A stretch of 55,621 bases of DNA from a virus. Its lineage: Duplodnaviria; Caudoviricetes. Positions 17,212 through 50,698 of the stretch are shown here, piece by piece. Position numbers and translations under genes: made by a program. Below the pieces are notes generated by a model. That model did no database searches and was not told where the DNA came from. It saw only the letters and a list, made by a program, of their open reading frames with translations. The stretch covers positions 1 to 55,621 of IMG/VR virus record IMGVR_UViG_3300028897_000188, one strand, 5' to 3'. How positions within the stretch are numbered: the stretch's first letter is position 1; every line of letters begins with the position of its first letter.

Positions 17212-19035
17212 TTAGATTATTGTCTTTAAAACTTTCTTTCCTCCTTTAGCAAGTTGAGTATAATCCGCTACTCTTCTTGGATTAAAACCACATGCGTTAG
17301 GACACGTAGTACAATGAGCGGTAGCACAACATAGCTTTGAAAGAATCTTGTTCCAATTTTCTTTCGGATGGGCTTCTTTCATTCCTTCAATGGCTTGTTT
17401 CCAGCCCTTGCTACCTGGACTCATATTCTGGTAAAGCTCTTTGTTCTTTAACCTTTCTCCTCTTGCTTTGAAATGCAATAAAGTAATAACATCAACCGCT
17501 GGATCTTTAGAATACCTTACTGCATCCTGTGGGTTATATGCCACTACTCTTATGTTGACGTTGCCTGGATATTGCTTCTTTATACTCTTAGCAATTTCCA
17601 ATTTAAATCCTCTCTGTTCATCTACAGACATATTGATATTAAATACTGGTTTGCCTTTCAGCGGCCCTTCTGTAAACTTACGTCCTCCGTATTTCTTCAC
17701 GAACTTCTCTTGCTTAGTAATTGCCTTTAGTTGAAGCCCCACCAATTGTGCATCTGCAATGATCTTCTCTATCTCTTTATCCGTAGCTTCATTTTCTATA
17801 TAGTCACCAGAAGAGAAGAACCTCAACCCACCCATTCTGTTAAATGTTTCTCTATTTTTTATTCCTGTTTTTGATAGAACATAATTACCATCTTTATCTG
17901 TTTGATATGTTCCATCTTTATTTTTTACTAGCCAGCCCTTGAATGTATCTTGATATCTCAATCCTCTTTTTTCGGCTTTAGCCAAGAAGTATCCAGGATT
18001 CTTTGCCGCTATTTCTCTTCCAGACTCCACATAACAATAGGAACATGTAGGATTATTGGCTTCTGTGACTTGTAATTTTATCTCCCTATCTCTTAACTTC
18101 TTTATGGTTCCCTCATCAGCACCAGATTCAATTGCGTTAGTTAAATCCTTCTGAGCTTCTGCCCACTCTTTCATCATATCAAGAAGTTTTTCTCTCTTTG
18201 GACACACGGTTGACATATCGACTGATTTCTTAGTCTTTGTGTTTCCGTCAATTGCGCTCCATTGTTTTACACATCCTTGAAGCTCCTTTAAATTGTTATA
18301 CTGCTTTGCTCTTATCTTAAATAAAAATTCAAGATATGCTTCTTCTGGAAACCACCCTTTACCAAATTTGTCTTTAGTCCATTCAAATAATTTCGCAACT
18401 TGACCATCTGTACTTCTACCAAGACTTGCTTCAAGATCCACAACACTCTTGAATCTCTTCATTACATTAGTTAATTGTTGCTCACCTTCTTTCTGCTCTT
18501 CCTGCCACGCTTTATACATCTTTATGATGTCATTAGCGAATCTCTGTTTTTCTTTATAGCTCTTGAGATGGTCTGAATATAATTCCTTTTGATCTCTATC
18601 AGCGGTGGCTTGTCTTCCCCAACCAGTAGTAGGACTGGCTTCAAGACCGTGAAGAATATACTTCCCTATAAATGACTTCTTTCCTAAATCATCCAGAGCA
18701 TGGAAAGATATCTTGGCTTTGCTAGTTAAACTTTTGAAAACCTTTTCTACTTCTTTATCCCATTCACTACTTGGCTGAATATCTTTAGTTGCTTGGTATT
18801 CAGCGGCTAGTTCTTTTCGTCTTTTCTTCTCCTCTCTTGATACTTCATTGACTAAGGTAAAATGTTCCTTTTCATCTTCTGTCAATGCTCTCTCAATTGG
18901 ATAATATACATCCTCAAATAAAGGATGTTCAATGAAGAGCCAAGTGTTAACTCCTAATACAATTTCATTAACTTCACGTATCTGATCTTTGAAATTATCA
19001 TTATCGTTTGATCTCAAATACTGGCTTAATCTCAT
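17212..19035 (-). CDS. 607-aa protein with C-terminal GP88-like (radical-SAM-like Fe-S) domain
   Basis: TVCP...CSYCY, LRFFSSGDY, AITK, INMSVD and C-terminal CC..HCTTC..C. Confidence 0.5.
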   Translation of the reverse strand: MRLSQYLRSNDNDNFKDQIREVNEIVLGVNTWLFIEHPLFEDVYYPIERALTEDEKEHFTLVNEVSREEKKRRKELAAEYQATKDIQPSSEWDKEVEKVFKSLTSKAKISFHALDDLGKKSFIGKYILHGLEASPTTGWGRQATADRDQKELYSDHLKSYKEKQRFANDIIKMYKAWQEEQKEGEQQLTNVMKRFKSVVDLEASLGRSTDGQVAKLFEWTKDKFGKGWFPEEAYLEFLFKIRAKQYNNLKELQGCVKQWSAIDGNTKTKKSVDMSTVCPKREKLLDMMKEWAEAQKDLTNAIESGADEGTIKKLRDREIKLQVTEANNPTCSYCYVESGREIAAKNPGYFLAKAEKRGLRYQDTFKGWLVKNKDGTYQTDKDGNYVLSKTGIKNRETFNRMGGLRFFSSGDYIENEATDKEIEKIIADAQLVGLQLKAITKQEKFVKKYGGRKFTEGPLKGKPVFNINMSVDEQRGFKLEIAKSIKKQYPGNVNIRVVAYNPQDAVRYSKDPAVDVITLLHFKARGERLKNKELYQNMSPGSKGWKQAIEGMKEAHPKENWNKILSKLCCATAHCTTCPNACGFNPRRVADYTQLAKGGKKVLKTII

Positions 19036-20465
19036 GTTGCAATTCTCCTGATATAATCATCTATTTCTTTTGGATCTGAAACATCATTGTCCATGATCCA
19101 TTCTGTAGTCTGACGAATCACATCTCCTAATTTCTTTCCAGACTTCATTCCAGTAATAGCCATTACATGGTTTCCGTCCACAAGCTTAATACGTTTGCCT
19201 ACTTCTTTAGTTCCATACTTCTCTTTGATCTTAATAGCCTTATCAATTATCTTTTCAAATTCTCCAGCATGTTTGAAAACTTCTCCTCTGGAAAACTCAT
19301 CTGCTTTACCTACAGCCACAAGCACATCCCAGTTTTCATCATTGACTAGTTTTGCAACTTTAGCTGGACGCATATCAAGGATCTTGTGAAACTTCATATG
19401 ATTGCCTACCGCAAAGACAATGGCATCTCTTTCCTTATTACTCATCCTTAACCTGTCTGCGATTGCATTGACTAGTTGGATGCTTTTTTCTGCGTGACTG
19501 TAGTATGTAGGTGTTCCTCCTGATTTGTGTGGGGCAAAGGTGACTCCTTTTCCGATATCATGTAAAAGTATAGCCAGATTTTTAAGCGGATTTTTAGTAT
19601 CGCTCTTTTTAAGTGCTGACATAACATGACTGTAAACCGTTCCTCCCTCCCCTCTTGTTTCAGGATGGTGTTGTAAATTTTCTCTAAACCATTTCAGATT
19701 CATTACTTCTGGTAAAACATATTTCAATATTTTTAACTCATCCAAAATCTTAATGTAGTTAGCAAATTTCTCTCCGCTCTGAGCCGCTGATTTTAGTAGC
19801 TCTTCCTTGACCCTTTCTGGAGCAAGGCTTAAAATATTCGGAGAAAGTTTCTGAGCCGCTTTTTTAGTTTTCGGATCTATATCAAAATCCAACTTGGAAG
19901 AAAATCTTGCGAGTCTCATCATTCGCAAATAGTCTTCTCCAAATCTCTTAAAAGGATCTCCTACCGTTTTCAAAACCTTGTTCTTGATATCTCTTCTACC
20001 GTCAAAGTAGTCTATGATCTCACCCTTTGCATTTAAGCCCATTGCATTTATAGTAAAATCTCTTCTTCCTACATCGTCTTCAAAGCTTCCTGTAATCTGT
20101 ACGGTGTCTGGTCTTCTACCGTCAAAGTATTTTCCGTCTGTTCTAAACTGAGCTATCTCAAAATCAAAACCACCTTCTTTAGCTACAACTATTCCAAAGT
20201 CTTTAGACTTTCCAATGTCATAAGTCCTAAAGAGTCTGGAAATCTCCTCTATTGGCATGTTTGTAGCAATGTCTACATCATGTGGTTTCAGGTTCCCTAA
20301 GATGATATCTCTTACAGAACCTCCGACTATGTAAGCTTTGTACTTGGCTCTGTTTATCTTATTTAAGATAGAAACTGCCGCTTGCAGTTCCTTATTTCTC
20401 CGTATGTAGTCCTGCCAATCTTTCAATTGCTGTCTAGCTTCTATAAGATATTTTAAAAATTTCAT
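19032..20465 (-). CDS. cca: CCA-adding tRNA nucleotidyltransferase (class II) with HD domain
   Basis: YIVGGSVRD...DVDIAT, RRDFTINAM, RFGEDYLRMMR, ERVKEEL, LLHDIGK. Confidence 0.92.
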   Translation of the reverse strand: MKFLKYLIEARQQLKDWQDYIRRNKELQAAVSILNKINRAKYKAYIVGGSVRDIILGNLKPHDVDIATNMPIEEISRLFRTYDIGKSKDFGIVVAKEGGFDFEIAQFRTDGKYFDGRRPDTVQITGSFEDDVGRRDFTINAMGLNAKGEIIDYFDGRRDIKNKVLKTVGDPFKRFGEDYLRMMRLARFSSKLDFDIDPKTKKAAQKLSPNILSLAPERVKEELLKSAAQSGEKFANYIKILDELKILKYVLPEVMNLKWFRENLQHHPETRGEGGTVYSHVMSALKKSDTKNPLKNLAILLHDIGKGVTFAPHKSGGTPTYYSHAEKSIQLVNAIADRLRMSNKERDAIVFAVGNHMKFHKILDMRPAKVAKLVNDENWDVLVAVGKADEFSRGEVFKHAGEFEKIIDKAIKIKEKYGTKEVGKRIKLVDGNHVMAITGMKSGKKLGDVIRQTTEWIMDNDVSDPKEIDDYIRRIAT

Positions 20466-26102: not shown

Positions 26103-26141
26103 TATAAAAAAAAGTGGCAGAGGATCTCTCCCCTGCCACTT
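26103..26141 (-). terminator. Intrinsic terminator
   Basis: AAGTGGCAG/CTGCCACTT stem followed by a T-run on the minus strand. Confidence 0.8.
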
Positions 26142-27767: not shown

Positions 27768-28934
27768 TCAACGATTGTTGAAAATTATCTTAGGCTCTAC
27801 TACAGCTTCTAAAGGAAAAAGCTCATCCTTCATTGGTAGTAAAACTTTAAACATGTATTCGATTTCTTCTTCAATCGTCCTTGTAGGTTTATAATTCAGA
27901 TTTCTAAGTTTGTCAGTAACATAATGGTAGTAATGTTCTCCTGTATATTCTACCCTTGGTGTCTCTATGTTACTCTCTTGAACTTCGATACCAAAGTTTT
28001 TAGAAACCTTGCCTACCATGTTTGCAACATCATTCATGGAGTGCCATTCGCTTAACTGATTCCACACTTGAACACTCCCTGCCATAGCTGGATTGTTTAC
28101 TGCTATCATTAAGGCTTGAACGCTATCATTGAGACTTAAAAATCCTCTTTGATGGTTTCCTTCTCCGTATATAGTCAAAGGAATTCCCAATACAGCTTGC
28201 ATGACAAACCTGTTAATAACCGTTCCTCCAGCTTCGTCTGTATCCAATCTGCTATAGATTTTATGCTTATCAATCTCATCCGTATAGATACCAAACACAA
28301 TAGATTGCTGGACATCCGTACACCTTAGATCCCAAGCTCTTGCAAGGTAATCAATCAAATAGGTAGAAGCAGTTTTACTACAATGGTAGATGCTCCCTGG
28401 TCTACGTGGATAAATCATCTCATTGCTTTTTCTACCCTTATGCTCGACTGTGAAATATCCCTCTTCAATATCAATATTGGAATAATGGTCATACTCTCCT
28501 GTAGTACCAATAGTGATATAATGACACTCTGGAGTATATTTCTTTATAGTCCATAAAAGATTATTGGTTCCAAGATAATTATTTGATAACACCATTTCAG
28601 CATTTTTTCTCGACTTCATGCTGTATGGGCCAGAAGGATTATGAGCAAGATTAATTACTACATCTGGCTTAAAATCCTCAAACATGTTCTTTAAAATTTC
28701 TGGTTCACACTCAATGTCTATTTCCTCAAAACAAAATGTACCATCGTACATATCATTAAACAGAATAGCTTTATCGTTCATGTCTAAAAGAGGAGTAGCA
28801 GACATGCTACCCATTCCCTCTATCCATTCTCTTCTCCAGAAGTTATCGAAACCGATTACTTCTCTACCTTCTGCTAACAATCTTTGAGTCAAAGCATTTC
28901 CGATATAACCATCACAACCGAATACGAAAATCAT
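27768..28934 (-). CDS. sqdB: UDP-sulfoquinovose synthase-like extended SDR
   Basis: GCDGYIG, DNFWRR, PYSM, GTTGEY, NIDIEEGY, YHCSK, NRFVMQAVLGIPLTIYG and PRVE...HYY are collinear with SqdB/SQD1. Confidence 0.88.
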   Translation of the reverse strand: MIFVFGCDGYIGNALTQRLLAEGREVIGFDNFWRREWIEGMGSMSATPLLDMNDKAILFNDMYDGTFCFEEIDIECEPEILKNMFEDFKPDVVINLAHNPSGPYSMKSRKNAEMVLSNNYLGTNNLLWTIKKYTPECHYITIGTTGEYDHYSNIDIEEGYFTVEHKGRKSNEMIYPRRPGSIYHCSKTASTYLIDYLARAWDLRCTDVQQSIVFGIYTDEIDKHKIYSRLDTDEAGGTVINRFVMQAVLGIPLTIYGEGNHQRGFLSLNDSVQALMIAVNNPAMAGSVQVWNQLSEWHSMNDVANMVGKVSKNFGIEVQESNIETPRVEYTGEHYYHYVTDKLRNLNYKPTRTIEEEIEYMFKVLLPMKDELFPLEAVVEPKIIFNNR

Positions 28935-39218: not shown

Positions 39219-39271
39219 AAAAAATAGAAAGGGAAAGGCTACTTTATCTAGGTAGTATCCTTTCCCTTTCT
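39219..39271 (-). terminator. Intrinsic terminator-like hairpin
   Basis: AGAAAGGGAAAGG/CCTTTCCCTTTCT 13-bp stem followed by ATTTTTT. Confidence 0.7.
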
Positions 39272-39751: not shown

Positions 39752-40809
39752 TAAAAATGATAGCTACCACCATCAGTTAGAGGATTTCTTTTATCTTTTT
39801 CCGCTAAATCCCAAGAGACATAATTTGATTCTCGACCACGACCAAAACGGATCTTCTCTTTGAACTCCTCTTTCAACTTTTTTTCGTCAAGTTCTACCTC
39901 ATCCATATTTTTGATCTTTGCGGTGACTCGCAGAAAAGCTCCACAAGGAGTTTTAACTCTGACATGTCCAGCGATTCCATCTTTAGCAATCAGAAGACTT
40001 ACATTGTGATTGCTGTTAATGAAATTTTCATCATGCTGTGAGAAACCAGCTTTGTCTCCCTTTGCTCCACCCATTTCATGGTGAGAGTGCATGACTCCTA
40101 CAACGCTAACCTTGTTATACTCATCTGTTAGAACTTTACTGACAAGAGCAGAATTTGCGTTCTGGTTAGGTAACAAGAGATCCATGACTTCTACTTCATT
40201 TTCGGATTTCCACCTACCCACAAGATATGCCAGCCATTCTTGGCTACCAGCCCATTTCATAAACAGCAAAGCTTTCTTTCTGGCAACGGAAGACATATAG
40301 ACAACCGCTTTATCAGGAGCTTTACTACATGCCGTAACACAATCAAGTTCTTCGGTGACATCCCAAAACCCATCTTCGTCTTCATGGATTCCATCCTTGT
40401 CTTCTCCATTGCCACCATGAGCGGCAGGAGCGGCAGGAGTAGTAGGATCGTGATAGACAATTGTACCACCTTGAGGATTCGTGTCAAACTCATCCGATTG
40501 TAATTCCATTTCTCTAACTAGAAGAATGGCATCAACCAGATCTTTATGTTGTTCACTAACCCTACGTACATGTCTCCTAGAACCCTGCCGTAGCTGTACT
40601 TTACAAGCATTAGCAATTGATTTGTGACTATACTCCGCTTCTGGATCTGTCAGATAATTAATGATCAGTCCTTGTAACGGAGTCAAGTTATTCTCATCAA
40701 TTGCTTCGATAACCTTTGGATGTAAACTTAGCTTTTCCATAATTTTTTCCTTTCTATCCTTTCTTAATCTTTTTTGATAATTGGCTCTATGTATTCTTGG
40801 ATCTATCAT
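39751..40809 (-). CDS. JAB/MPN+ metalloisopeptidase (DUB-like) with N-terminal extension
   Basis: QEWLAYLVG...VVGVMHSH...FSQHD (E, HxH, SxxD). Confidence 0.85.
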   Translation of the reverse strand: MIDPRIHRANYQKRLRKDRKEKIMEKLSLHPKVIEAIDENNLTPLQGLIINYLTDPEAEYSHKSIANACKVQLRQGSRRHVRRVSEQHKDLVDAILLVREMELQSDEFDTNPQGGTIVYHDPTTPAAPAAHGGNGEDKDGIHEDEDGFWDVTEELDCVTACSKAPDKAVVYMSSVARKKALLFMKWAGSQEWLAYLVGRWKSENEVEVMDLLLPNQNANSALVSKVLTDEYNKVSVVGVMHSHHEMGGAKGDKAGFSQHDENFINSNHNVSLLIAKDGIAGHVRVKTPCGAFLRVTAKIKNMDEVELDEKKLKEEFKEKIRFGRGRESNYVSWDLAEKDKRNPLTDGGSYHF

Positions 40810-41390
40810 CTATCAAACCTGAAAAGTTTCTCCACGCTGGAGATTACTTCTTTTTTCTCATACTTCATAACCTTTGCTACTGCTAAAGCCGCTACAATCA
40901 TAGCAGGAACAGCCCATGAAGGAACAATGGTATATCCTTCTCCGTCTTCTCCAAACTCCGCAACGGAATTATGGATACCAAAATTTTCTCCATCATAACC
41001 AGCTTTGAAATATTTTGCTCCCATCTTTCTAGCAATCTCTTGGTTCTCCGTTTGAGCTTTCGCCTTATCGGTACAGTCAATAACCCAATCGGTTTTATCT
41101 CCCATTTCATTAAAAGGAAAGGGATAGGAATAGACAATACATTCTTCTCTGATTCCTTGAATTGCTATCTTTGTGATATCGGCTTTGTTCTTCCCAATAT
41201 ACCTGTAGGGAATATCCAAACGGTTTAGGTTATGCTCTTCCAATGTATCAGGATCATAAAGAACAATTTTACCAATACCAGACATTGCTAAAATCTTAGC
41301 TACCCAATAGCCTATTCCACCACACCCCACAACTGTAACTGTTTGCGACTGATTGAGTTTAAGCTTTTCCTGTCTCTGATAAAGACCCAT
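40806..41390 (-). CDS. ThiF/E1-like adenylyltransferase
   Basis: YQRQ, VVGCGGIG, DPDTLEEHNLNR, GKNKA, VIDCTD. Confidence 0.92.
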   Translation of the reverse strand: MGLYQRQEKLKLNQSQTVTVVGCGGIGYWVAKILAMSGIGKIVLYDPDTLEEHNLNRLDIPYRYIGKNKADITKIAIQGIREECIVYSYPFPFNEMGDKTDWVIDCTDKAKAQTENQEIARKMGAKYFKAGYDGENFGIHNSVAEFGEDGEGYTIVPSWAVPAMIVAALAVAKVMKYEKKEVISSVEKLFRFDR

Positions 41391-42860: not shown

Positions 42861-43610
42861 TTATCTTTGTTGCAATGATAACAGACAATATTTTTCAGTA
42901 CCGTCCTCCGCATAAACATACGTCATTCCTAACTCATTGTCCACGTCATATGTAAATTTAGCTTTGAATTTTTTTTCGATGTCAATCACATTCATTAAGT
43001 TTACCATATCTTTAAATGAAAAGCAAAGGGATAAATCATCTCTATCAATATCATCTAAATGAAATTTCAAACCATTAGAATGTTGGTTGTCCTTATCGGC
43101 AGTTTCTAAAAATACCTTTTTATCTTTGACATCCAAATAAACTTTACCAAATCTGGCTCCGATTTTTTTGATCTTGTCAAATCTCTTCATAAACTCTTCA
43201 TCAACATCAATTTCAAAAAACCAATCAACATCCTGCTTGACATCTGGTGTGCCAAGTCTCTTAGGTACTGTAGGATAACAAAAGGAAATTCTACTCTTTT
43301 GTCTACCATCTTTAAGAACCATGTATCCAGCACCAGCCGATCCTTCGTAAATGTCTATATCAATTTCTTCATTGTCGAATAACTGAATAAAAGGCATTAC
43401 GTTTTGTGCCACATCTGAAAAGTTAAAAGAAAGCTCTTCATTAGTATCAAGAATATCATTCGGAAGCTTGAGAAGTGAAATACTATTTCCATCATTGGAT
43501 CTCATATCAGATTCAATAGTATCACCACATCTCAATTGAAGAGTCTCAATACTAAAATTAAGAGTTGCTTTTTTCAGAACATCTTCCAAATTAGTTAGGT
43601 TAATTTTCAT
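42861..43610 (-). CDS. Sliding clamp (gp45/PCNA-like)
   Basis: Acidic 249-aa two-domain alpha/beta protein next to the clamp loader genes. Confidence 0.65.
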   Translation of the reverse strand: MKINLTNLEDVLKKATLNFSIETLQLRCGDTIESDMRSNDGNSISLLKLPNDILDTNEELSFNFSDVAQNVMPFIQLFDNEEIDIDIYEGSAGAGYMVLKDGRQKSRISFCYPTVPKRLGTPDVKQDVDWFFEIDVDEEFMKRFDKIKKIGARFGKVYLDVKDKKVFLETADKDNQHSNGLKFHLDDIDRDDLSLCFSFKDMVNLMNVIDIEKKFKAKFTYDVDNELGMTYVYAEDGTEKYCLLSLQQR

Positions 43611-43627
43611 AACACTACCTCCACAAA

Positions 43628-44005
43628 TTATTTTTTCTTTCTCATATTCATATAGAAGCTCACTATCATTCGTGCTTCTCTGGTTGATAGATTCTGATGC
43701 TTCTCCTTGAGCTTCTTTATCCCTGCATCCAATACTTCTTCTGACTTTTTCTTGGGCCAGCGGATAAAGCGTTTGCCTTTAGGAATTGAGTGCCACAAGT
43801 ATTCATAAATAGCTTCATCACCTAATGTATACAGGTAAGGCAATACTTTGTCAACCACTTTTACAAGATCTTTGAAAAAAGAAAAATGTAGACAAAGAAA
43901 ATAAGCAGAAGCCACTTTCTTATCATACTCCACCTTTCTTGACTTCAAACAGATTTGGTCTACAAAAGTAAACGGAGTTATTTTATCAGGATCTTTCATA
44001 TGCAT
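43628..44005 (-). CDS. Clamp loader small subunit (gp62-like)
   Basis: PFTFVDQI...YEYLWHSIPKGKRFIRWPK...LSTREA. Confidence 0.8.
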   Translation of the reverse strand: MHMKDPDKITPFTFVDQICLKSRKVEYDKKVASAYFLCLHFSFFKDLVKVVDKVLPYLYTLGDEAIYEYLWHSIPKGKRFIRWPKKKSEEVLDAGIKKLKEKHQNLSTREARMIVSFYMNMRKKK

Positions 44006-44402
44006 CTATCATTGCTGGTAGAGCCTTTCTAATTTCTCTCTCTACCACTAAAAATTCTTTCCATAAATCAGGATGTAAATGACGTACCTCATAGTCCTTT
44101 CCTTTTTCCTCACAATCATCAATGCCTTGTTTCATACCAATAGTCATTCCCAAATCAATATAGAAGACGGTTTTCTCCGCAACATCTCTCCATAAGAAAC
44201 CAGCTTCAATTCCTAACTTTCTTTCCCCTGGTATAGAATCCCTTAAAACAAATTTGCGAGTGTAAAGCAAATGACTAGCATATGGACTCTCATTATGATT
44301 TAACAAACAATCCCTCATACATAAGTCTCCATAGGCTTCATTAATCAGAATATCATTAGCTGACTTTCCAGCATACGGAGATTCAATTACTACTCTTTTC
44401 AT
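43986..44402 (-). CDS. Conserved phage protein (nucleoside deoxyribosyltransferase-like fold)
   Basis: VVIESPYAG...ESPYASHLLYT...GIEAG...FYIDLGMTIGM. Confidence 0.6.
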   Translation of the reverse strand: MKRVVIESPYAGKSANDILINEAYGDLCMRDCLLNHNESPYASHLLYTRKFVLRDSIPGERKLGIEAGFLWRDVAEKTVFYIDLGMTIGMKQGIDDCEEKGKDYEVRHLHPDLWKEFLVVEREIRKALPAMIDAYERS

Positions 44403-44602
44403 AATCTCATTTCCTCCTGTTTAATAAAATCTTCCCAATAGAATTTTTGTTCTTTGTAATCTTGACATATAGAACTACTTGCTTTCAATCCCAGTCTCTT
44501 TATCAAGTTATGAGTCCAAGTATTAACATAACATTTTTCTTCTTTTACTGGAAAAAAATTTCTTACACAATATTGGCATGTATCACAACTCATATCACAC
44601 AA
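44399..44602 (-). CDS. Small Cys-rich protein
   Basis: CDTCQYC; ends DFIKQEEMRL. Confidence 0.55.
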   Translation of the reverse strand: MCDMSCDTCQYCVRNFFPVKEEKCYVNTWTHNLIKRLGLKASSSICQDYKEQKFYWEDFIKQEEMRL

Positions 44603-45491
44603 TTTGCTGGTAGATCATACTCATTACCATTCGCATGAAGTTAATCTCTGGAATGGGATAAGTATTGTGTCTATTCAAATGTTCACCTATTTCCAATACT
44701 GCATTTCCAGGCTTCTTAAATTCTCCAGCGTTCTCATAGCAGTAGAAATATAGATCTGGATAATCAACATAATTTCCTCTTAGCTCTTTACGGATCTCAT
44801 CTACATCTTTAGTAATGAGTAGTTTGAATATCTTCTTATTCAATGCTTCCGTTGCGGAAATACTTGAGCCTACAAGCTTTCCATCAATAGTATTCTCATG
44901 TAGTGACCATATGGTTTTACGGATATCAGGATAACACTTCTTAACGATATCCATAGCCACCTTACCATCAAACTCCACATCTTCCTGTCTCAAGATATTC
45001 AACACATGTTTGCCTATTTCTTTAATAGGTGGATTCTCAAGACCCACAACCCAACATCTGGATCTAAGCTCTGGTAGCATGTCATTGATATTGTTTGTTA
45101 GAAAAACAAACCTAGTTATTTTATGAACATCCTCCATTAACTGTTTCAGCATCTTTTGAGCGTTCTGTTTTGAAGTAGAAGTCAAAGAGTCAGACTCATT
45201 CAAAACACATATCTGCATTTTTGTCATCGGCATTGAAGTAGAAAACGGTTGAATCTTTTCTCTCACAATATCAATACCTGTCTCATCGGAAGCATTAAGC
45301 CACATCTTATCGTAGCCAGTTTCCTTGAGAAGTATATTTGTGAAGGTTCCTTTTCCCACTCCTGCCGTACCATAGAGCATGAGATTCGGAACCTCTTTTA
45401 AAGCTTTTCTAAGTTTAGGTTTAATGTCTTCATTGAGAATCATGTTCTCAAATTCTTTTGGTTCATATTTGAACGTCCATAGATCTCCCAT
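44595..45491 (-). CDS. Clamp loader AAA+ ATPase (gp44/RFC-like)
   Basis: LWTFKYEP, GTAGVGKGT, LNASDETGID, LRSRC, YPDIRK. Confidence 0.92.
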   Translation of the reverse strand: MGDLWTFKYEPKEFENMILNEDIKPKLRKALKEVPNLMLYGTAGVGKGTFTNILLKETGYDKMWLNASDETGIDIVREKIQPFSTSMPMTKMQICVLNESDSLTSTSKQNAQKMLKQLMEDVHKITRFVFLTNNINDMLPELRSRCWVVGLENPPIKEIGKHVLNILRQEDVEFDGKVAMDIVKKCYPDIRKTIWSLHENTIDGKLVGSSISATEALNKKIFKLLITKDVDEIRKELRGNYVDYPDLYFYCYENAGEFKKPGNAVLEIGEHLNRHNTYPIPEINFMRMVMSMIYQQIV

Positions 45492-45531: not shown

Positions 45532-46443
45532 TCAATCTTCTTCTACATACTCATCAAAGATATCTTCAAAAACATCTTTAGGTACTACAGCCGTTCCTTT
45601 TTGACTAACAACATAAGCGGCACATTTATTAGCTATCTTTGCTGATCTTAACACACTCAATCCTCTTTGTAAACATATTGCCATGATTGCAGTAACGGTA
45701 TCTCCAGCACCAATTACTTCGCTATCGAAAACTTTTTCTCCCTTGATATGTTCCGCAACATCCAATGTTCCATTAGAAGTCCTTTCCATTAGAGTCATAC
45801 CCCTGTCTCCTTTAGTAATAAGGATGTTTTGAGGTAAAGCTGGATGTCTCCATCTCATTTGATGGTATTCGGATTCATTAGGAGTGACTAGTAAAACTCC
45901 TTCTGGATACAAAGCCCAGTTTTCAGGTTTCGGATCAATTATGATTTTATCCTTATAAGCTCCAATCCAATCCATGAATTTTCTACTCACCACTCCTTTA
46001 GCATAATCGGAAACAATTATCATATCATACTCTTCTTCCAGCATTTGATGAGTCAAAGCAATATGAGTGGTCTTCTCATGGTAAAAATCTATTTCTGTTT
46101 TATCTTCAATGTCAATTCTTATCAATTGCTGATTGTCTGCAAATATACGTTCCTTTATAGTAGTAGGATTGTTATTAGGCATGTACCAAAATTTAATTCC
46201 ATCTTCTTTTAAAAGTTTCTGTACTGATTCTCCAGCTTCATCTTGACCGAAAGCACCAGCTATATCTACAGTACCTTTACCAGTTATAGCAGAAATGTTT
46301 CTGGCACAATTAGCGGCTCCTCCCAAAACATCATATTGAAACTTTACATCTACTACTGGAACTGGAGCTTCTGGAGAAATCCTATTTGCTTTACCCACTA
46401 CATATCTGTCAATCATTAAATCACCAATGACTAGAAATTTCAT
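45532..46443 (-). CDS. Heptose-7-phosphate kinase (HldE/RfaE domain I, PfkB family)
   Basis: VIGDLMID...RISPEAPVPV, GGAAN, SDYAKG, IDPK, TPNESE, GAGDT; start moved to ATG 46443. Confidence 0.9.
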   Translation of the reverse strand: MKFLVIGDLMIDRYVVGKANRISPEAPVPVVDVKFQYDVLGGAANCARNISAITGKGTVDIAGAFGQDEAGESVQKLLKEDGIKFWYMPNNNPTTIKERIFADNQQLIRIDIEDKTEIDFYHEKTTHIALTHQMLEEEYDMIIVSDYAKGVVSRKFMDWIGAYKDKIIIDPKPENWALYPEGVLLVTPNESEYHQMRWRHPALPQNILITKGDRGMTLMERTSNGTLDVAEHIKGEKVFDSEVIGAGDTVTAIMAICLQRGLSVLRSAKIANKCAAYVVSQKGTAVVPKDVFEDIFDEYVEED

Positions 46444-46454
46444 AAGTACCTCCT

Positions 46455-46522
46455 TGGAGCGGAGCACTTACAGGAAAAATTAAAAGGAGAAACAAAAACA
46501 AAAAAACCTGTAAGCACTCCGC
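46455..46522 (-). ncRNA. tRNA-Gly-like minihelix ending UCCA
   Basis: 16-bp stem starting GCGG and ending CCGC-TCCA; 32-nt U-rich loop; 5 nt downstream of tRNA-Gly. Confidence 0.55.
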
Positions 46523-46527
46523 ATATA

Positions 46528-46604
46528 TGGAGCGGTAGACTGGACTTGAACCAGCAACAACCAGCTTGGAAGGCTAGTGTTCTACCAATTTGAACTACTA
46601 CCGC
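46528..46604 (-). tRNA. tRNA-Gly(TCC)
   Basis: Cloverleaf GCGGTAG...CT TCC AA...GGTTCAAGTCC...CTACCGC TCCA. Confidence 0.95.
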
Positions 46605-46613
46605 ATTGAGGAG

Positions 46614-46702
46614 AGTATAACAGAACCAGAATCAATTGTAAACGTACTTTTTTTGATAAGTAAAAATAATTGGTTTACATTCCCTAGTCACTATGTTAGC
46701 AT
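46614..46702. promoter_or_regulatory. Divergent sigma70 promoters
   Basis: Minus: TTTACA(46642)-17-TATACT(46614). Plus: TTTACA(46674)-17-TAGCAT(46702). Confidence 0.65.
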
Positions 46703-46737
46703 ATTCCTTATTAGGAATAATGTGGAGGTATAAAATT

Positions 46738-47262
46738 GTGAGCATAGAACATGAAATCGGAACAGATCCTTTATTTGTAGAACTAGTCAAAGTAACAAAT
46801 CTTTATGAGAATTTCAATTCCCAACATATTCATTCATTAGACATAATCAAAAAAATTGGCAGATATGCAATAATACCTCATTACTTGACAGATTGTTTAA
46901 TGTTAGCATTAGAAGATTCACCAAAAACATGTTGGAAATTGTTCTTATACCTCTATCAACATATTAATGGAAAAGCATTAGATCAAAACGGAACTCCAAA
47001 AACATTCATTAGGGAAGATAAAATAAAAAAAGCTACAGTCTTTATGAAGAAAATTAATTGTAATAGTTCATCTCAATTTTATAAAGCTATTAGAATTTTA
47101 AAAGAGAAAAAAATTATTTACATTAACAATGAAAATATTTTTTTAAATGGATTCCCTTTAACTTGGAATGTAGGGAATGAAATAAGAGAGAGCATAAAAA
47201 AAATTATAGAAGAAGAAATCGAAAAAATCAAAAGCAGAATAACCGAAAAAGAGAGGGCTTGA
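46738..47262 (+). CDS. Putative replication initiator/wHTH DNA-binding protein
   Basis: GTG start after GGAGG; YAIIPH...WKLFLYL...SQFYKAIRILKEKKII wHTH-like; adjacent to the repeat array. Confidence 0.5.
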   Translation: MSIEHEIGTDPLFVELVKVTNLYENFNSQHIHSLDIIKKIGRYAIIPHYLTDCLMLALEDSPKTCWKLFLYLYQHINGKALDQNGTPKTFIREDKIKKATVFMKKINCNSSSQFYKAIRILKEKKIIYINNENIFLNGFPLTWNVGNEIRESIKKIIEEEIEKIKSRITEKERA

Positions 47263-47377: not shown

Positions 47378-47517
47378 ATTCCTTATAAGGAATAACCATT
47401 CCGTATAAGGAATAACCATTCCGTATAAGGAATCATTCATTCCGTATAAGGAATAACCATTCCGTATAAGGAATGAGCAAACTTGTAAAATGAACACAAT
47501 CATTCCTTATAAGGAAT
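47378..47517. repeat. Six 16-bp palindromes ATTCC(G/T)TATAAGGAAT (iteron/operator-like array)
   Basis: Copies at 47378, 47398, 47418, 47439, 47459 and 47502; AT-rich tract upstream. Confidence 0.9.
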
Positions 47518-47529
47518 GGAGGAGGAACT

Positions 47530-47853
47530 ATGAAAAGAGCATTACAAGCAATTTTAATCGCAGGGGAAGAAATGAAGTTTGATGTTTTAGCTAACAGGAA
47601 GAAAATCACAATCAGGGAAGGTCATCGTGATTATACTAAAGGCCCAGTTTTAATAGGTTGTAATCAACTTGACTGGGCTACAATGAGAAACATTGTAGAT
47701 GTTAGATATACTACTTTGGTAGAAGTTACGGAAGAGGAATATAAAGCAGATGGATTTGAGACAAAATCACAAATGCTGGATGGACTCGCTCAATTCTATC
47801 CTCAAATTAACTGGGAAAGTCCTGTAACCGTAATAAGATGGGAGGAAATGTAA
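47530..47853 (+). CDS. ASCH domain protein
   Basis: RKKITIREG...ADGF...FYP...VTVIRW. Confidence 0.8.
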   Translation: MKRALQAILIAGEEMKFDVLANRKKITIREGHRDYTKGPVLIGCNQLDWATMRNIVDVRYTTLVEVTEEEYKADGFETKSQMLDGLAQFYPQINWESPVTVIRWEEM

Positions 47854-48206
47854 TGGATTTTAATGACTACCAAATGAAATGTAGGAAAACTGACGTGTGG
47901 CATGAAGTAGAAAAGGATATTGTCTTACCTCTTGAACCACCTTGGATGTATTACGTCTTGGGTATGGCTGGAGAGATCGGAGAATTTCAAGAGAAAGTAA
48001 AGAAGTTATTCAGAGATAAAAAAGGACATGTTGATTATGAATTCTCTAAAGACATTGCTTATGAGCTTGGAGATGTTCTCTGGTATATGGCTAGATTCTG
48101 TGATGAGTTAGGGATTCCGTTTGATGATATTCCTAAATTAAACGTAGAGAAATTATTCTCACGTAAAGACAGGAACAAACTACAAGGTGACGGAGATAAT
48201 AGATAA
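47853..48206 (+). CDS. MazG-like NTP pyrophosphohydrolase
   Basis: FNDYQ...LGMAGEIGE..EKVKK...ELGDVLWY...NVEKLFSR...GDGDNR. Confidence 0.88.
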   Translation: MDFNDYQMKCRKTDVWHEVEKDIVLPLEPPWMYYVLGMAGEIGEFQEKVKKLFRDKKGHVDYEFSKDIAYELGDVLWYMARFCDELGIPFDDIPKLNVEKLFSRKDRNKLQGDGDNR

Positions 48207-48309
48207 TGGATGAAGAATATGGATATATAATGTTATACTATATGGAGTTATGGAATTTATGCTTTACTCCATGTGGTCTTTGTTATGATTTAGATTTAAG
48301 AAGTATAAT

Positions 48310-48474
48310 ATGATTATCGAAGTCAAAGAAAATAAAGCCAAGTGTCCTGAGTGTGGTAAATGGAGAGATGTAACTTTCCATGATATCAGGAAACAAAAAG
48401 AATTAAAATGTTGTAAGAACTATGCTTTGTTGGAGGTAAAAAATGTCAAAAATCAAAAAATACAAAAGAAGTAA
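48310..48474 (+). CDS. Small Zn-ribbon protein (54 aa)
   Basis: KCPECG...CC; fills the intergenic gap. Confidence 0.4.
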   Translation: MIIEVKENKAKCPECGKWRDVTFHDIRKQKELKCCKNYALLEVKNVKNQKIQKK

Positions 48475-48901
48475 AGAAGAAGAAAAACAGTTAGGTCAAA
48501 AAGACGCTGGACGCTTTGACGAAGGTAAAGTAAGAATGGATCTGATTCCTGCATGGGCTTTGGAGAAGATTGCGGAAGTATATACATACGGAGCGCAAAA
48601 ATATGACGATAATAATTGGCTTAAAGGAATGAAGTGGAGTAAGGTTTCTGGCCCATTGGAGCGTCACTATAATAAATGGAAAAGAGGAAACATTAAAGAT
48701 GAGGAAAGTAATTGCTACCACCTTGCTATGGTAGCTTGGAACGCAATAGCCTTAATGATATATCAGGAGTTTGGTTTGGGTACGGATGATAGGTGTCCTG
48801 TAGTAATGGATATGTTGGATGATAAACAAAGAAAGAAGATGATTGAACATTGGTTAAAGTGTTCAATGGAAGGAAAACAATATAACGGTCTGGAGGAATA
48901 A
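48443..48901 (+). CDS. dATP/dGTP diphosphohydrolase-domain protein (DUF5664-like)
   Basis: RFDEGKVRMDLIP...YGAQKYDDNNWLKG...RH...DEES..HLAMVAWN. Confidence 0.85.
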   Translation: MSKIKKYKRSKEEEKQLGQKDAGRFDEGKVRMDLIPAWALEKIAEVYTYGAQKYDDNNWLKGMKWSKVSGPLERHYNKWKRGNIKDEESNCYHLAMVAWNAIALMIYQEFGLGTDDRCPVVMDMLDDKQRKKMIEHWLKCSMEGKQYNGLEE

Positions 48902-49152
48902 TGGAATTAACGATTGAAAGACTTCAAGAAGCATATAAAAAAATAAACGGAGTAGAATATGACTTAAACAAAAGATGGGAAGAAGGGATTTCTCACCATC
49001 CTAAAAGTGAAGAGTTGTTTAAAAAGATTCAAGAAGTAGATTTTATTTGGAATGACGATCATTTTTGCTGGAAGTATGGTGGAGATGGAGACAACGGAGA
49101 AATCTTTATGTATGTTTTGGATGTCATATTTGAAGAAGAGGATAAGAAATGA
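48901..49152 (+). CDS. Hypothetical protein
   Basis: 83-aa ORF with SD; WKYGGDGDNGE. Confidence 0.65.
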   Translation: MELTIERLQEAYKKINGVEYDLNKRWEEGISHHPKSEELFKKIQEVDFIWNDDHFCWKYGGDGDNGEIFMYVLDVIFEEEDKK

Positions 49153-49943
49153 TTTACTGTTTTGATATAGATGGAACCATATGTACAAAAGCTAGTCATT
49201 ATAAATTTGCTAAACCAATACAACCAATGATAGATAGGATAAACAAGCTGTATGAGAACGGTAATACAATTATTCTGTCTACTGCCAGAGGGAAAGGAAG
49301 CGGAGTGGATTATGAGGAGCTAACCAGACAACAGATTTTTAAATGGAAAGTAAAACATAATGAGATACTTTTCGATAAACCTTCCGCTGACTTCTACGTA
49401 GATGATAAAGCCGTGTTGCCTGAAACACTCTATCTAAAGGAGTACCGTCAAGTATTTACAAACGGATGTTTCGATATAATTCACGCTGGACACATCAAAC
49501 TTCTAAGGGAAGCATCAGAGCTTGGTATTGTAACAGTAGGAGTTAATTCAGATGACTCCGTTAGAAGGATCAAGAGAGAACCAGTTAACAAGCTGGAGGA
49601 TAGGATGGAAGTTCTATCTTCTATAAGATACGTGGATAGAGTTATACCGTTTACTCAGGATACTCCATTTGATTTAGTTATGCAATTACTACCAGATGTG
49701 ATTGTTAAAGGAGCCGATTGGAAAGGTAAGGATGTTAATGAATTTAAGTTTGTAGAGTCTTACGGAGGGAAGGTTCATTTTGTAGAATTGCTTACTGGTT
49801 ATTCAAGTAGCAAAATAATGTCTAGTTGGGAAGATCGCTATACGGAGTGTTTATGTGATTGTGAAAAAGAGATTTGTGGTATTTGTAGCCAGCCGTATTG
49901 TGATCATGTGAATTGTAAATGTAGAGAATGGAACATGAGATAA
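49149..49943 (+). CDS. HAD phosphatase fused to heptose-1-P adenylyltransferase (HldE/RfaE domain II)
   Basis: FDIDGT...TARG...KP.ADFYVDDK, then FTNGCFDIIHAGH...VGVNSDDSV...VKGADW. Confidence 0.85.
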   Translation: MIYCFDIDGTICTKASHYKFAKPIQPMIDRINKLYENGNTIILSTARGKGSGVDYEELTRQQIFKWKVKHNEILFDKPSADFYVDDKAVLPETLYLKEYRQVFTNGCFDIIHAGHIKLLREASELGIVTVGVNSDDSVRRIKREPVNKLEDRMEVLSSIRYVDRVIPFTQDTPFDLVMQLLPDVIVKGADWKGKDVNEFKFVESYGGKVHFVELLTGYSSSKIMSSWEDRYTECLCDCEKEICGICSQPYCDHVNCKCREWNMR

Positions 49944-49944
49944 A

Positions 49945-50031
49945 TGGTACTAGGGGAGGGAGTTGAACCCTCAATCCCTTTCGGGCAACGGATTTTAAGT
50001 CCGTTGTGTATACCAATTCCACCACCCTAGT
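49945..50031 (-). tRNA. tRNA-Leu(TAA)
   Basis: Type II cloverleaf, ACGGA CT TAA AA TCCGT, encoded CCA. Confidence 0.93.
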
Positions 50032-50404
50032 AAACTTTTACTTCATCTATTGTGTAGTCAATGTATTCCATATCGAATTCAAACTGCTCATCGACAGTAT
50101 TATTTTTCCTGTCAATTATTTCACTAAATTTTTCCCAGTATTCAAGAGGATCAATTTTTAACATTTCAGGATCTACAAAACTATAGCCATATTTTTCTTG
50201 GGAATCTTTCAATCCAACTTCTTCATTGAATTTATCTACTTCTTCTTTAATACGGTGAGCTTCCGCTTTACAGTTAATACAGAAATTTTCTGCATTGTCT
50301 TTATCAAAGAATCCCTTCGTAACCCATGTGTGATAACTATCATGTTCTCCGCTGTGACCAATGACTACATATACAATTTTCGGTTCTAACAAAGTAGGTG
50401 TCAT
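50027..50404 (-). CDS. Hypothetical protein between tRNAs
   Basis: 125-aa ORF with AAGGA SD. Confidence 0.65.
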   Translation of the reverse strand: MTPTLLEPKIVYVVIGHSGEHDSYHTWVTKGFFDKDNAENFCINCKAEAHRIKEEVDKFNEEVGLKDSQEKYGYSFVDPEMLKIDPLEYWEKFSEIIDRKNNTVDEQFEFDMEYIDYTIDEVKVY

Positions 50405-50425
50405 TTTTCTTTCCTTTCATTAAAA

Positions 50426-50511
50426 TGGTACGTGAGGAGGGAGTCGAACCCTCAATCCTTGCGGCACTAGATCCTAAGTCTAGCGTGTATACCTATTTCC
50501 ACCACTCACGT
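50426..50511 (-). tRNA. tRNA-Leu(TAG)
   Basis: CTAGA CT TAG GA TCTAG, GGTTCGACTCC, encoded CCA. Confidence 0.93.
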
Positions 50512-50614
50512 ATATTATCGAATCCAAAACATTCCCTGCTCTTCCCAATAATCATTCCAAGCAGTTTTTATCTTCTTCCATATTTTTTTAATCTTCTTCT
50601 TCATATTTTACTCC

Positions 50615-50698
50615 TGGTTGGGGAGGTAGGATTTGAACCTACGTGTGATGTATCGGTTTTACAGACCGACTCCTTCGACCAGACTCGGACACTCCCCA
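50615..50698 (-). tRNA. tRNA-Tyr(GTA)
   Basis: TCGGT CT GTA AA ACCGA, GGTTCAAATCC, encoded CCA. Confidence 0.9.

Follow-up and report, generated by a model that had tools for sequence, protein, structure and literature searches.

The IMG/VR virus record IMGVR_UViG_3300028897_000188 (55,621 nucleotides (nt), i.e., 55.6 kb, estimated at 23% of the genome of an uncultured marine phage and with 36% G+C; this whole stretch is called the window below) carries, among T4-like replication and baseplate genes, a 68-nt hairpin element 5 nt behind a tRNA-Gly gene. This element is a natural mimic of the acceptor helix of that tRNA-Gly, placed in a phage mRNA leader, and is so far unique. It is read, like the whole locus, on the minus strand. 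A first description made from the sequence had placed it at 46455-46522, had noted that it starts with GCGG and ends with CCGC-UCCA, the same first four pairs and 3' end as the tRNA, had drawn it as one stem of 16 base pairs (bp) including two G-U pairs under a U-rich loop, and had seen it abut the Shine-Dalgarno sequence (SD) of a heptose kinase gene. We could reproduce all of this, using the sequence, ARAGORN and Rfam for the coordinates and the sequence and RNAfold for the fold; the name of the kinase is backed by PfkB and rfaE_dom_I matches and by homologues. As a reading of what the element does, we tentatively favour, as a possibility rather than a probability, that it is a cis-acting mimic of a tRNA end, which would lead RNase P to cut between tRNA and mRNA and leave a protective hairpin at the 5' end of the mRNA.

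Anatomy and stability of the hairpin

The helix is made of 16 consecutive pairs, of which 46516-46465 and 46515-46466 are G-U. Pairs 1 to 4 (GCGG/CCGC), U73 and the CCA are those of the adjacent tRNA-Gly, and from pair 5 on the two differ. The bacterial acceptor-side identity set for glycine, given in Table 1 of PMC9976931 as G1-C72, C2-G71, G3-C70 and U73, is present in full, together with the CCA, so that the glycine mimicry proposed by the original prediction stands for the acceptor end. The hairpin has no anticodon arm and hence lacks C35 and C36, which the same source names as major determinants for glycyl-tRNA synthetase (GlyRS). Within the loop, at most three marginal extra pairs can form, none of them in the centroid structure, and its three C all lie in a CUCC complementary to the SD. 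This SD begins on the base directly after the hairpin CCA (Table 1).

The fold is far more stable than expected by chance. RNAfold gives -27.4 kcal/mol for the hairpin and -8.2 +/- 2.1 kcal/mol for shuffled sequences (z = -9.2), none of the 200 shuffles being as stable. In a crude count of stems that weighs G-U like any other pair, the window has four stems of 16 bp, compared with 0.8 per shuffle; the other three are rich in G-U pairs (4-8 each), which makes the energy z-score the more suitable measure. A single copy of the junction motif (tRNA 3' end, 5 nt, GCGG) is present in the window, where 0.02 are expected. The plus-strand RNA of the same DNA reaches only -20.1 kcal/mol, about 7 kcal/mol weaker than the sense strand, because both G-U pairs turn into A-C mismatches. 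The structure is fitted to the strand on which the tRNA and the kinase gene lie, and this sense-strand stability points to selection on the hairpin RNA.

Acceptor-stem hairpins ending in NCCA beside the tRNAs of other phages had been named as something to look for. Downstream of the 722 tRNAs of all loci examined, within 15 nt, there are 25 cases of an NCCA behind a terminal stem of 9 or more pairs (control: 81 of 20,000 random positions), and only the window hairpin exceeds 11 pairs; the remaining cases are the next tRNA, a tRNA-like gene or short chance stems. The observation of the hairpin itself is real and statistically solid.

Several other identities were tried and rejected. A cloverleaf or degenerate tRNA was discarded since neither ARAGORN nor Rfam, both of which detect the window's five tRNAs, reports anything at 46455-46522. 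An intrinsic terminator would be a short hairpin, rich in G+C, whose loop is small and whose stem runs directly into a row of U, and the clear terminators of the window do have short loops and U tails (e.g., 26112-26141 and 39226-39271). Here the loop is 32 nt long, the stem is followed by UCCAAGGAGG on the minus strand and by AUAUAUGG on the plus strand, and a terminator scan found no terminator-like site at the hairpin on either strand. The hairpin is not a dispersed repeat either: with up to 3 mismatches, the window holds no second copy of an arm besides the partner arm and four chance matches with three mismatches. A 14-mer of the arm has at least 112 matches in IMG/VR, and among the matches listed none has a partner arm above 12/14. 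Finally, an attP-like tRNA fragment was set aside by reasoning, only 8 nt being common at the 3' side.

Table 1. Positions of the features of the hairpin locus, of the related gene set of the window and of the D-armless loci of other phages
Feature	Position	Strand	Evidence or remark
Promoter-like site TTTACA-17 nt-TATACT, TG before the -10	46614..46642	-	10/12 consensus score, extended -10
tRNA-Gly(UCC), CCA encoded	46528..46604	-	ARAGORN; Rfam RF00005, 65.6 bits
Spacer UAUAU, 5 nt; U precedes hairpin G1	46523..46527	-	sequence
Hairpin element, 68 nt	46455..46522	-	sequence, RNAfold
Hairpin 5' arm GCGGAGUGCUUACAGG; first 4 nt are tRNA-Gly positions 1-4	46507..46522	-	sequence, fold
Hairpin loop, 32 nt, 25 U (78% U), contains UCUCCUUU	46475..46506	-	mean unpaired probability 0.88
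Hairpin 3' arm CCUGUAAGUGCUCCGC	46459..46474	-	sequence, fold
UCCA, i.e., discriminator U and CCA, single-stranded, as in tRNA-Gly	46455..46458	-	unpaired probability 0.70, processed-mRNA model
SD AGGAGG (46454-46449), 5-nt spacer and AUG (46443-46441) of the kinase gene	46441..46454	-	SD unpaired probability 0.78, processed-mRNA model
D-glycero-beta-D-manno-heptose-7-phosphate kinase gene, first open reading frame of the transcription unit	45532..46443	-	Pfam PfkB; NCBIfam rfaE_dom_I; homologues
Clamp-loader large subunit gene	44595-45491	-	family searches
Clamp-like gene	42861-43610	-	one weak PHROG match, E 5e-4
ADP-heptose/nucleotide gene set	45532-46443, 49149-49943, 27768-28934, 47530-48901, 43986-44402	-, +, -, +, - (in this order)	
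29 D-armless loci	L010, L022, L024-L026, L028, L035, L039, L044, L048-L051, L057, L060, L065, L067, L078, L080, L083, L088, L091, L099, L108, L110, L112, L115, L121, L123		uncultured marine phages, tRNA arrays

Relatives of the locus and D-armless RNAs of other phages

Relatives of the locus were sought through its proteins, by exact patterns and by BLAST. The kinase protein itself found no relative in IMG/VR. An alignment of kinases found 15 loci there, the best at 37% identity and none with a homologous hairpin, and in metagenome contigs at least 587 of 596 stretches were relatives, the best among the matches listed being 45% identical, again with no homologous hairpin. Kinases 70-80% identical do exist (P0004-P0007). 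The clamp loader led to four IMG/VR loci (51-59% identity), none of which has a tRNA-Gly, and BLAST of the tRNA and hairpin on these four whole records returned only U-rich low-complexity matches in coding regions and exact word matches of 11-14 nt. The exact 23-nt 3' half of the tRNA-Gly has no match in IMG/VR. The pattern of a tRNA end followed by GCGG...CCGCUCCA and AGGAG has none in IMG/VR and seven in genome contigs, all of them chance matches (six in GC-rich DNA) with neither a tRNA nor a comparable hairpin, and BLAST on the phages of GenBank returned a single match, to an unrelated tRNA. The same phage is present in sequencing runs from several marine sediment, seawater, estuary and salt-marsh samples. 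Its pieces over the locus, from contigs of four DNA runs, show 0-1 differences, and none spans the whole hairpin; the remaining contigs of the four runs carry tRNA-Gly genes that are not related and short 5' pieces of other kinase genes, upstream of which the sequence does not resemble the hairpin. In the literature searched, which left subscription journals mostly outside its coverage, we found no acceptor-mimic hairpin beside a phage tRNA and no D-armless phage tRNAs.

A looser pattern, i.e., a tRNA-Gly 3' end, 3-8 nt, GCGG, 40-70 nt and CCGCUCCA, matches at least 119 IMG/VR loci. The 122 second elements among the matches listed comprise 43 ordinary tRNA-Gly (ARAGORN), 35 AT-rich RNAs of 65-70 nt (29 distinct) and 44 others, mostly GC-rich stretches and a few 74-nt tRNA-like sequences. 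The 29 distinct AT-rich RNAs form a family that lacks a D arm: a 7-bp acceptor stem encloses an anticodon-like hairpin, in which a CC is invariant, and a T-like arm of 5 bp. Compensatory changes are seen at 13 of 18 pairs, 94.7% of the alignment cells are paired, and the covariation score of 0.717 is reached by none of 500 shuffles, slid partners giving 0.15 at most. Rfam calls none of the members checked (8 loci) and standard ARAGORN calls none of the 29; the mitochondrial mode of ARAGORN calls five of the 29 as D-armless tRNA-Gly. With a covariance model of the family (R1), 100 of the pattern loci yield 46 members that reach 55 bits, whereas 0.9 Mb of phage loci without relation to them yield none; two cultured cyanophages have no member next to their tRNA-Gly. 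At least 10 loci have the element immediately upstream of a canonical tRNA-Gly, four have a tandem pair, and some members have directly behind them the SD and AUG of Cpn10, rubredoxin-like or methyltransferase genes. These RNAs look like glycine acceptors, possibly unfit for the ribosome, and they show that phages keep reduced glycine-type acceptor RNAs beside tRNA-Gly.

The window hairpin shares with this family its size (about 65-70 nt), the GCGG start and the CCGC-UCCA end, a position 3-8 nt from a canonical phage tRNA-Gly and, often, an SD and AUG behind; the ends and length range of the family were imposed by the search pattern, so that they are not an independent likeness. Unlike the hairpin, the D-armless RNAs have the anticodon-like hairpin, the T-like arm and strong covariation. 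Membership of the hairpin in the family was rejected: it scores 15.6 bits (E about 0.1, cmsearch with filters off) and aligns to the model only at the acceptor stem and UCCA, with 45 model positions skipped.

A proposed signal between tRNA and mRNA and the readings that compete with it

The tRNA-Gly and the hairpin look like the leader of a kinase/clamp-loader mRNA. The gene across the gap (46693-47262) is on the plus strand; because of this opposite orientation, the minus-strand unit must start in the 88-bp divergent gap. There, 9 nt upstream of tRNA-Gly G1, ends a promoter-like site, and we infer that a putative promoter precedes the tRNA. Consensus promoter matches are not enriched in the AT-rich window (14 against 9.2 expected, and 60 against 71 in a second scan), so that the weight of this site comes mostly from its position. 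The terminator scan found no terminator-like site between tRNA-Gly, hairpin and kinase gene, and co-transcription of the three is probable. The kinase matches NCBIfam rfaE_dom_I (1.1e-72, 244.9 bits, under the 345-bit cutoff of the model) as well as Pfam PfkB, and 10 of 10 aligned homologues begin at, or align to, its start MKFLVIGD. Downstream follow the clamp-loader large subunit, a DUF7768 protein, the small clamp-loader subunit and a weakly clamp-like open reading frame (ORF).

In the processing reading that we favour, transcription would begin a few bases before tRNA-Gly and continue through the hairpin into the kinase and clamp-loader genes. RNase P would cleave at tRNA-Gly G1 and also at G46522, where it would meet a helix starting with G-C, a U at -1 and a single-stranded UCCA at the 3' side. 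The second cut would leave the tRNA-Gly with a trailer of only 5 nt, to be trimmed by exonucleases, and the mRNA's 5' end would lie hidden inside a 16-bp helix immediately upstream of a free SD, shielded from 5'-end-dependent decay. We infer both the RNase P cleavages and the stabilisation of the mRNA from several features of the locus. In a processed-mRNA model the hairpin forms, with the SD 78% and the UCCA 70% unpaired. Set against the substrate features described in PMC11143913, the hairpin has the G1-C pair, the U at -1 and a mostly unpaired UCCA. As a candidate stabiliser it has an accessible SD (0.78 unpaired), and its flush 5' end would depend on the putative cut at 46522.

The nearest known kinds of such a hairpin are tRNA-like processing signals and the hairpin substrates of RNase P. 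According to PMC11143913, bacterial RNase P anchors its substrates via a 3' RCCA motif and also cleaves simple stems, pre-4.5S RNA, phage M3 RNA, phage C4 antisense RNA and mRNAs. As presented there, these non-tRNA substrates (phi80 M3 RNA, P1/P7 C4 RNA and others) resemble the window hairpin in being of hairpin type with an RCCA-like 3' tail, and some are phage-encoded and cut from longer transcripts, C4 being an antisense regulator. The window hairpin differs from them in that it stands 5 nt behind a tRNA whose aminoacylation identity it carries, and its cleavage is only predicted. To our knowledge, none of those substrates carries the aminoacylation identity of an adjacent tRNA. C4 RNA is processed from the very transcript that it regulates. 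In plant mitochondria, t-elements and "acceptor-stem-like stem-loops" are described as signals for RNase P or RNase Z where mRNAs end (Forner et al. 2007, PMC1920247): a tRNA-like or acceptor-like structure is co-transcribed with an mRNA and proposed to set its end, and genuine tRNAs do the same job beside other genes. By that account these elements are organellar and some of their ends are mapped, whereas the window hairpin belongs to a phage, is known from sequence alone, lies directly behind a real tRNA and copies its identity pairs along with an encoded CCA. The 5' untranslated region (UTR) of ompA, covered in the review PMC2777011, has a stem-loop as mRNA stabiliser. It is alike in being a stable 5' hairpin just upstream of an accessible ribosome-binding site; stabilisers of this type, as the review presents them, begin at the transcription start, whereas the 5' end of the window hairpin would need a cleavage behind the tRNA. 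Emory et al. (1992) are reported to have found that a 5'-terminal stem-loop stabilises E. coli mRNA.

Several points weigh against the processing reading. RNase P requires at most G1-C72, N73 and the CCA, so the identity of pairs 2-4 and U73 is unexplained unless the ends descend from a copy of tRNA-Gly. The helix has 16 bp and no T-loop, compared with the 12-bp acceptor/T-stem stack that RNase P measures, and the U-rich loop and its CUCC have no role in the RNase P model. No hairpin is found at the other three minus-strand tRNA/ORF junctions of the window (Tyr, Leu, Leu), nor at the tRNA-Ser junction of a relative, where an SD and AUG follow; such junctions hence do not need one. Across the protein-guided, exact-pattern and BLAST searches the hairpin is a singleton, which gives neither conservation nor covariation, and there is no RNA run among the sequencing runs listed as holding the sequence.

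Another reading is that the hairpin is excised as a free, trans-acting 68-nt minihelix ending in UCCA, serving as a GlyRS-charged, non-ribosomal pool of glycine or as a decoy for enzymes or defences that act on tRNA 3' ends. We regard this as a serious but doubtful possibility. The exact acceptor-side identity set of PMC9976931 (Table 1) and the CCA are kept, while the remainder of the helix bears no relation to the tRNA. As described in PMC13219725, Mu Mom moves glycine from Gly-tRNA-Gly to DNA, probably reading the 3' acceptor end only, and PMC12851939 describes a defence nuclease, Cas12a3, that cuts tRNA CCA tails and a minimal hairpin-plus-CCA substrate. The window also encodes a CCA-adding-type nucleotidyltransferase (19032-20465) and nucleotide-pool enzymes of a kind typical for phages whose DNA is modified, other phages have the D-armless Gly-type genes next to tRNA-Gly, and tRNA-Tyr has its SD directly after the CCA too, so that a tight junction is no bar to 3' maturation. 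Microhelices of Gly type can be charged. Synthetic minihelix and microhelix substrates have the same G1-C72, C2-G71, G3-C70, U73 and CCA (identity set as in PMC9976931) and no anticodon; they are laboratory-made, with 7-12 bp, a small loop and a free 3' end, whereas the window hairpin occurs in nature, with 16 bp and a loop of 32 nt, inside an mRNA leader. The armless mitochondrial tRNAs described from Romanomermis are likewise tRNAs cut down to a hairpin with an acceptor end, but they retain an anticodon loop and decode, which the window hairpin, having no such loop, does not share. What speaks against a free minihelix is that C35/C36 are absent and that a mature CCA end would remove or expose the kinase SD: because the SD starts right after the CCA, only cleavage at one precise bond would keep both the end and the ribosome-binding site intact. 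Pfam and PHROGs searches of about 46 of the 66 candidate ORFs of the window (which is about 23% of the genome) gave no Mom-like, GNAT or Fem-type transferase, and the D-armless model matches the acceptor end only, at 15.6 bits. The specific version in which the excised UCCA minihelix is charged by the host GlyRS, or is a sacrificial decoy kept in repair by the phage CCA-adding-type enzyme, we judge rather improbable.

The absence of a hairpin at the other tRNA junctions and its single occurrence in the searches made fit, in turn, an ordinary structured 5'-UTR element unrelated to the tRNA machinery, the likeness to a tRNA end being a duplication scar or a coincidence. Such an element could be a protein operator, a site for a double-strand-specific RNase or, through its long U-rich single-stranded loop, a platform for S1 or Hfq, and a stable, strand-specific hairpin right before a strong SD would suit it. 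We hold it to be unlikely, though by no means negligible: a GCGG start and a UCCA 5 nt from a like-ended tRNA are improbable by chance (0.02 per window), no other of the 722 tRNAs has a comparable stem, and 16 bp is short for RNase III, whose typical sites are longer. The loop also suggested, already in the original prediction, a switch. Its segment UCUCCUU would bind the AGGAGG that lies 21 nt downstream, or other SDs in trans, and gate kinase translation until processing or unfolding. The energetic part of this idea stands, with -10.1 kcal/mol for the loop/SD duplex, and the gathering of three C within 4 nt is expected in only 88 of 4960 placements (1.8%). Its geometry is awkward while the 16-bp stem stands, since a 4-nt link joins the helix base to the SD while the loop lies about 45 A away, which implies strain; moreover, the helix closes before the SD emerges in transcription, and the SD is 78% unpaired in the nested ensemble, which cannot represent a pseudoknot. 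We consider this switch distinctly improbable. Least credible of all is that the hairpin has no function and stems from a recent palindromic duplication or from a tRNA-Gly copy in decay. It occurs as a singleton, no relatives of it are known, and same-phage pieces with 0-1 differences give no variation in which constraint could show; but a decaying copy would lose pairs and not gain 12 more perfect ones, both imperfections are G-U on the transcribed strand, and the hairpin fills the whole space between tRNA and SD in a tightly packed genome.

Neighbouring genes and biological meaning

The other tRNAs of this phage are also packed against protein genes. tRNA-Tyr, tRNA-Leu(UAG) and tRNA-Leu(UAA) are interleaved with ORFs at 49945-50698 (minus strand); GGAG and an AUG come immediately after the CCA of tRNA-Tyr, and the ORF that this AUG opens, of about 29 codons, ends a few bases before the next tRNA. 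Because the ORFs are packed directly against the tRNAs, it must be tRNA processing that sets the mRNA ends, a point in favour of the processing reading of the hairpin. Near the hairpin locus, a 16-bp palindrome, ATTCC-N6-GGAAT, occurs in seven copies against 0.06 expected (46703-46718 and 47378-47517). Six copies, at a spacing of about 20 bp, lie behind ORF 46693-47262, which has no family match, and the seventh overlaps the start of this ORF, beside the putative divergent tRNA-Gly promoter. By their arrangement the repeats are a candidate operator or iteron array, and the ORF may encode the protein that binds it.

Other genes of the window touch tRNA ends or modified DNA. At 19032-20465 (minus strand), flanked by baseplate genes, lies a 477-amino-acid protein that combines a poly(A) polymerase/CCA-adding head domain with an RNA-binding domain. 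Among NCBIfam models it fits CCA tRNA nucleotidyltransferase best (256 bits, the cutoff being 290). Because all five tRNAs of the window already encode their CCA, repair of tRNA 3' ends is suggested for it. A split ADP-heptose pathway is made up of the kinase, a phosphatase-like domain fused to a heptose-1-phosphate adenylyltransferase, and an epimerase/dehydratase. Near these genes are ASCH, MazG, a dATP/dGTP diphosphohydrolase domain and the deoxyribosyltransferase-like DUF7768 protein; the window holds nucleotide-pool enzymes typical of phages with modified DNA, and the ADP-heptose and nucleotide gene set suggests modified or sugar-decorated DNA. Finally, a short ThiF/E1-like adenylyltransferase of 194 amino acids is encoded at 40806-41390 (minus strand), with weaker matches that include an anti-phage system component.

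If the hairpin does act as a free minihelix, it would be the first natural aminoacylatable one, an anticodon-less helix serving as a natural amino-acid acceptor. Its glycine, unusable by the ribosome, could feed Mom-type tRNA-dependent modification of DNA or of the cell envelope, or the minihelix could soak up, as a decoy, defences directed against tRNA 3' tails. This would bear on the origin of tRNA, on the use of Gly-tRNA in phage DNA modification and on tRNA-tail-directed immunity. If instead the processing signal that we favour is the true role, its interest lies in the organisation of phage genomes. Large phages often pack tRNA genes against protein genes, and how tRNA and mRNA are separated without loss of either has been little studied. 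The hairpin would then be a phage counterpart of organellar "tRNA punctuation" and of the t-elements, minimised to an acceptor helix and an NCCA, and it would offer a compact natural part with which to release and stabilise mRNAs encoded behind tRNAs.

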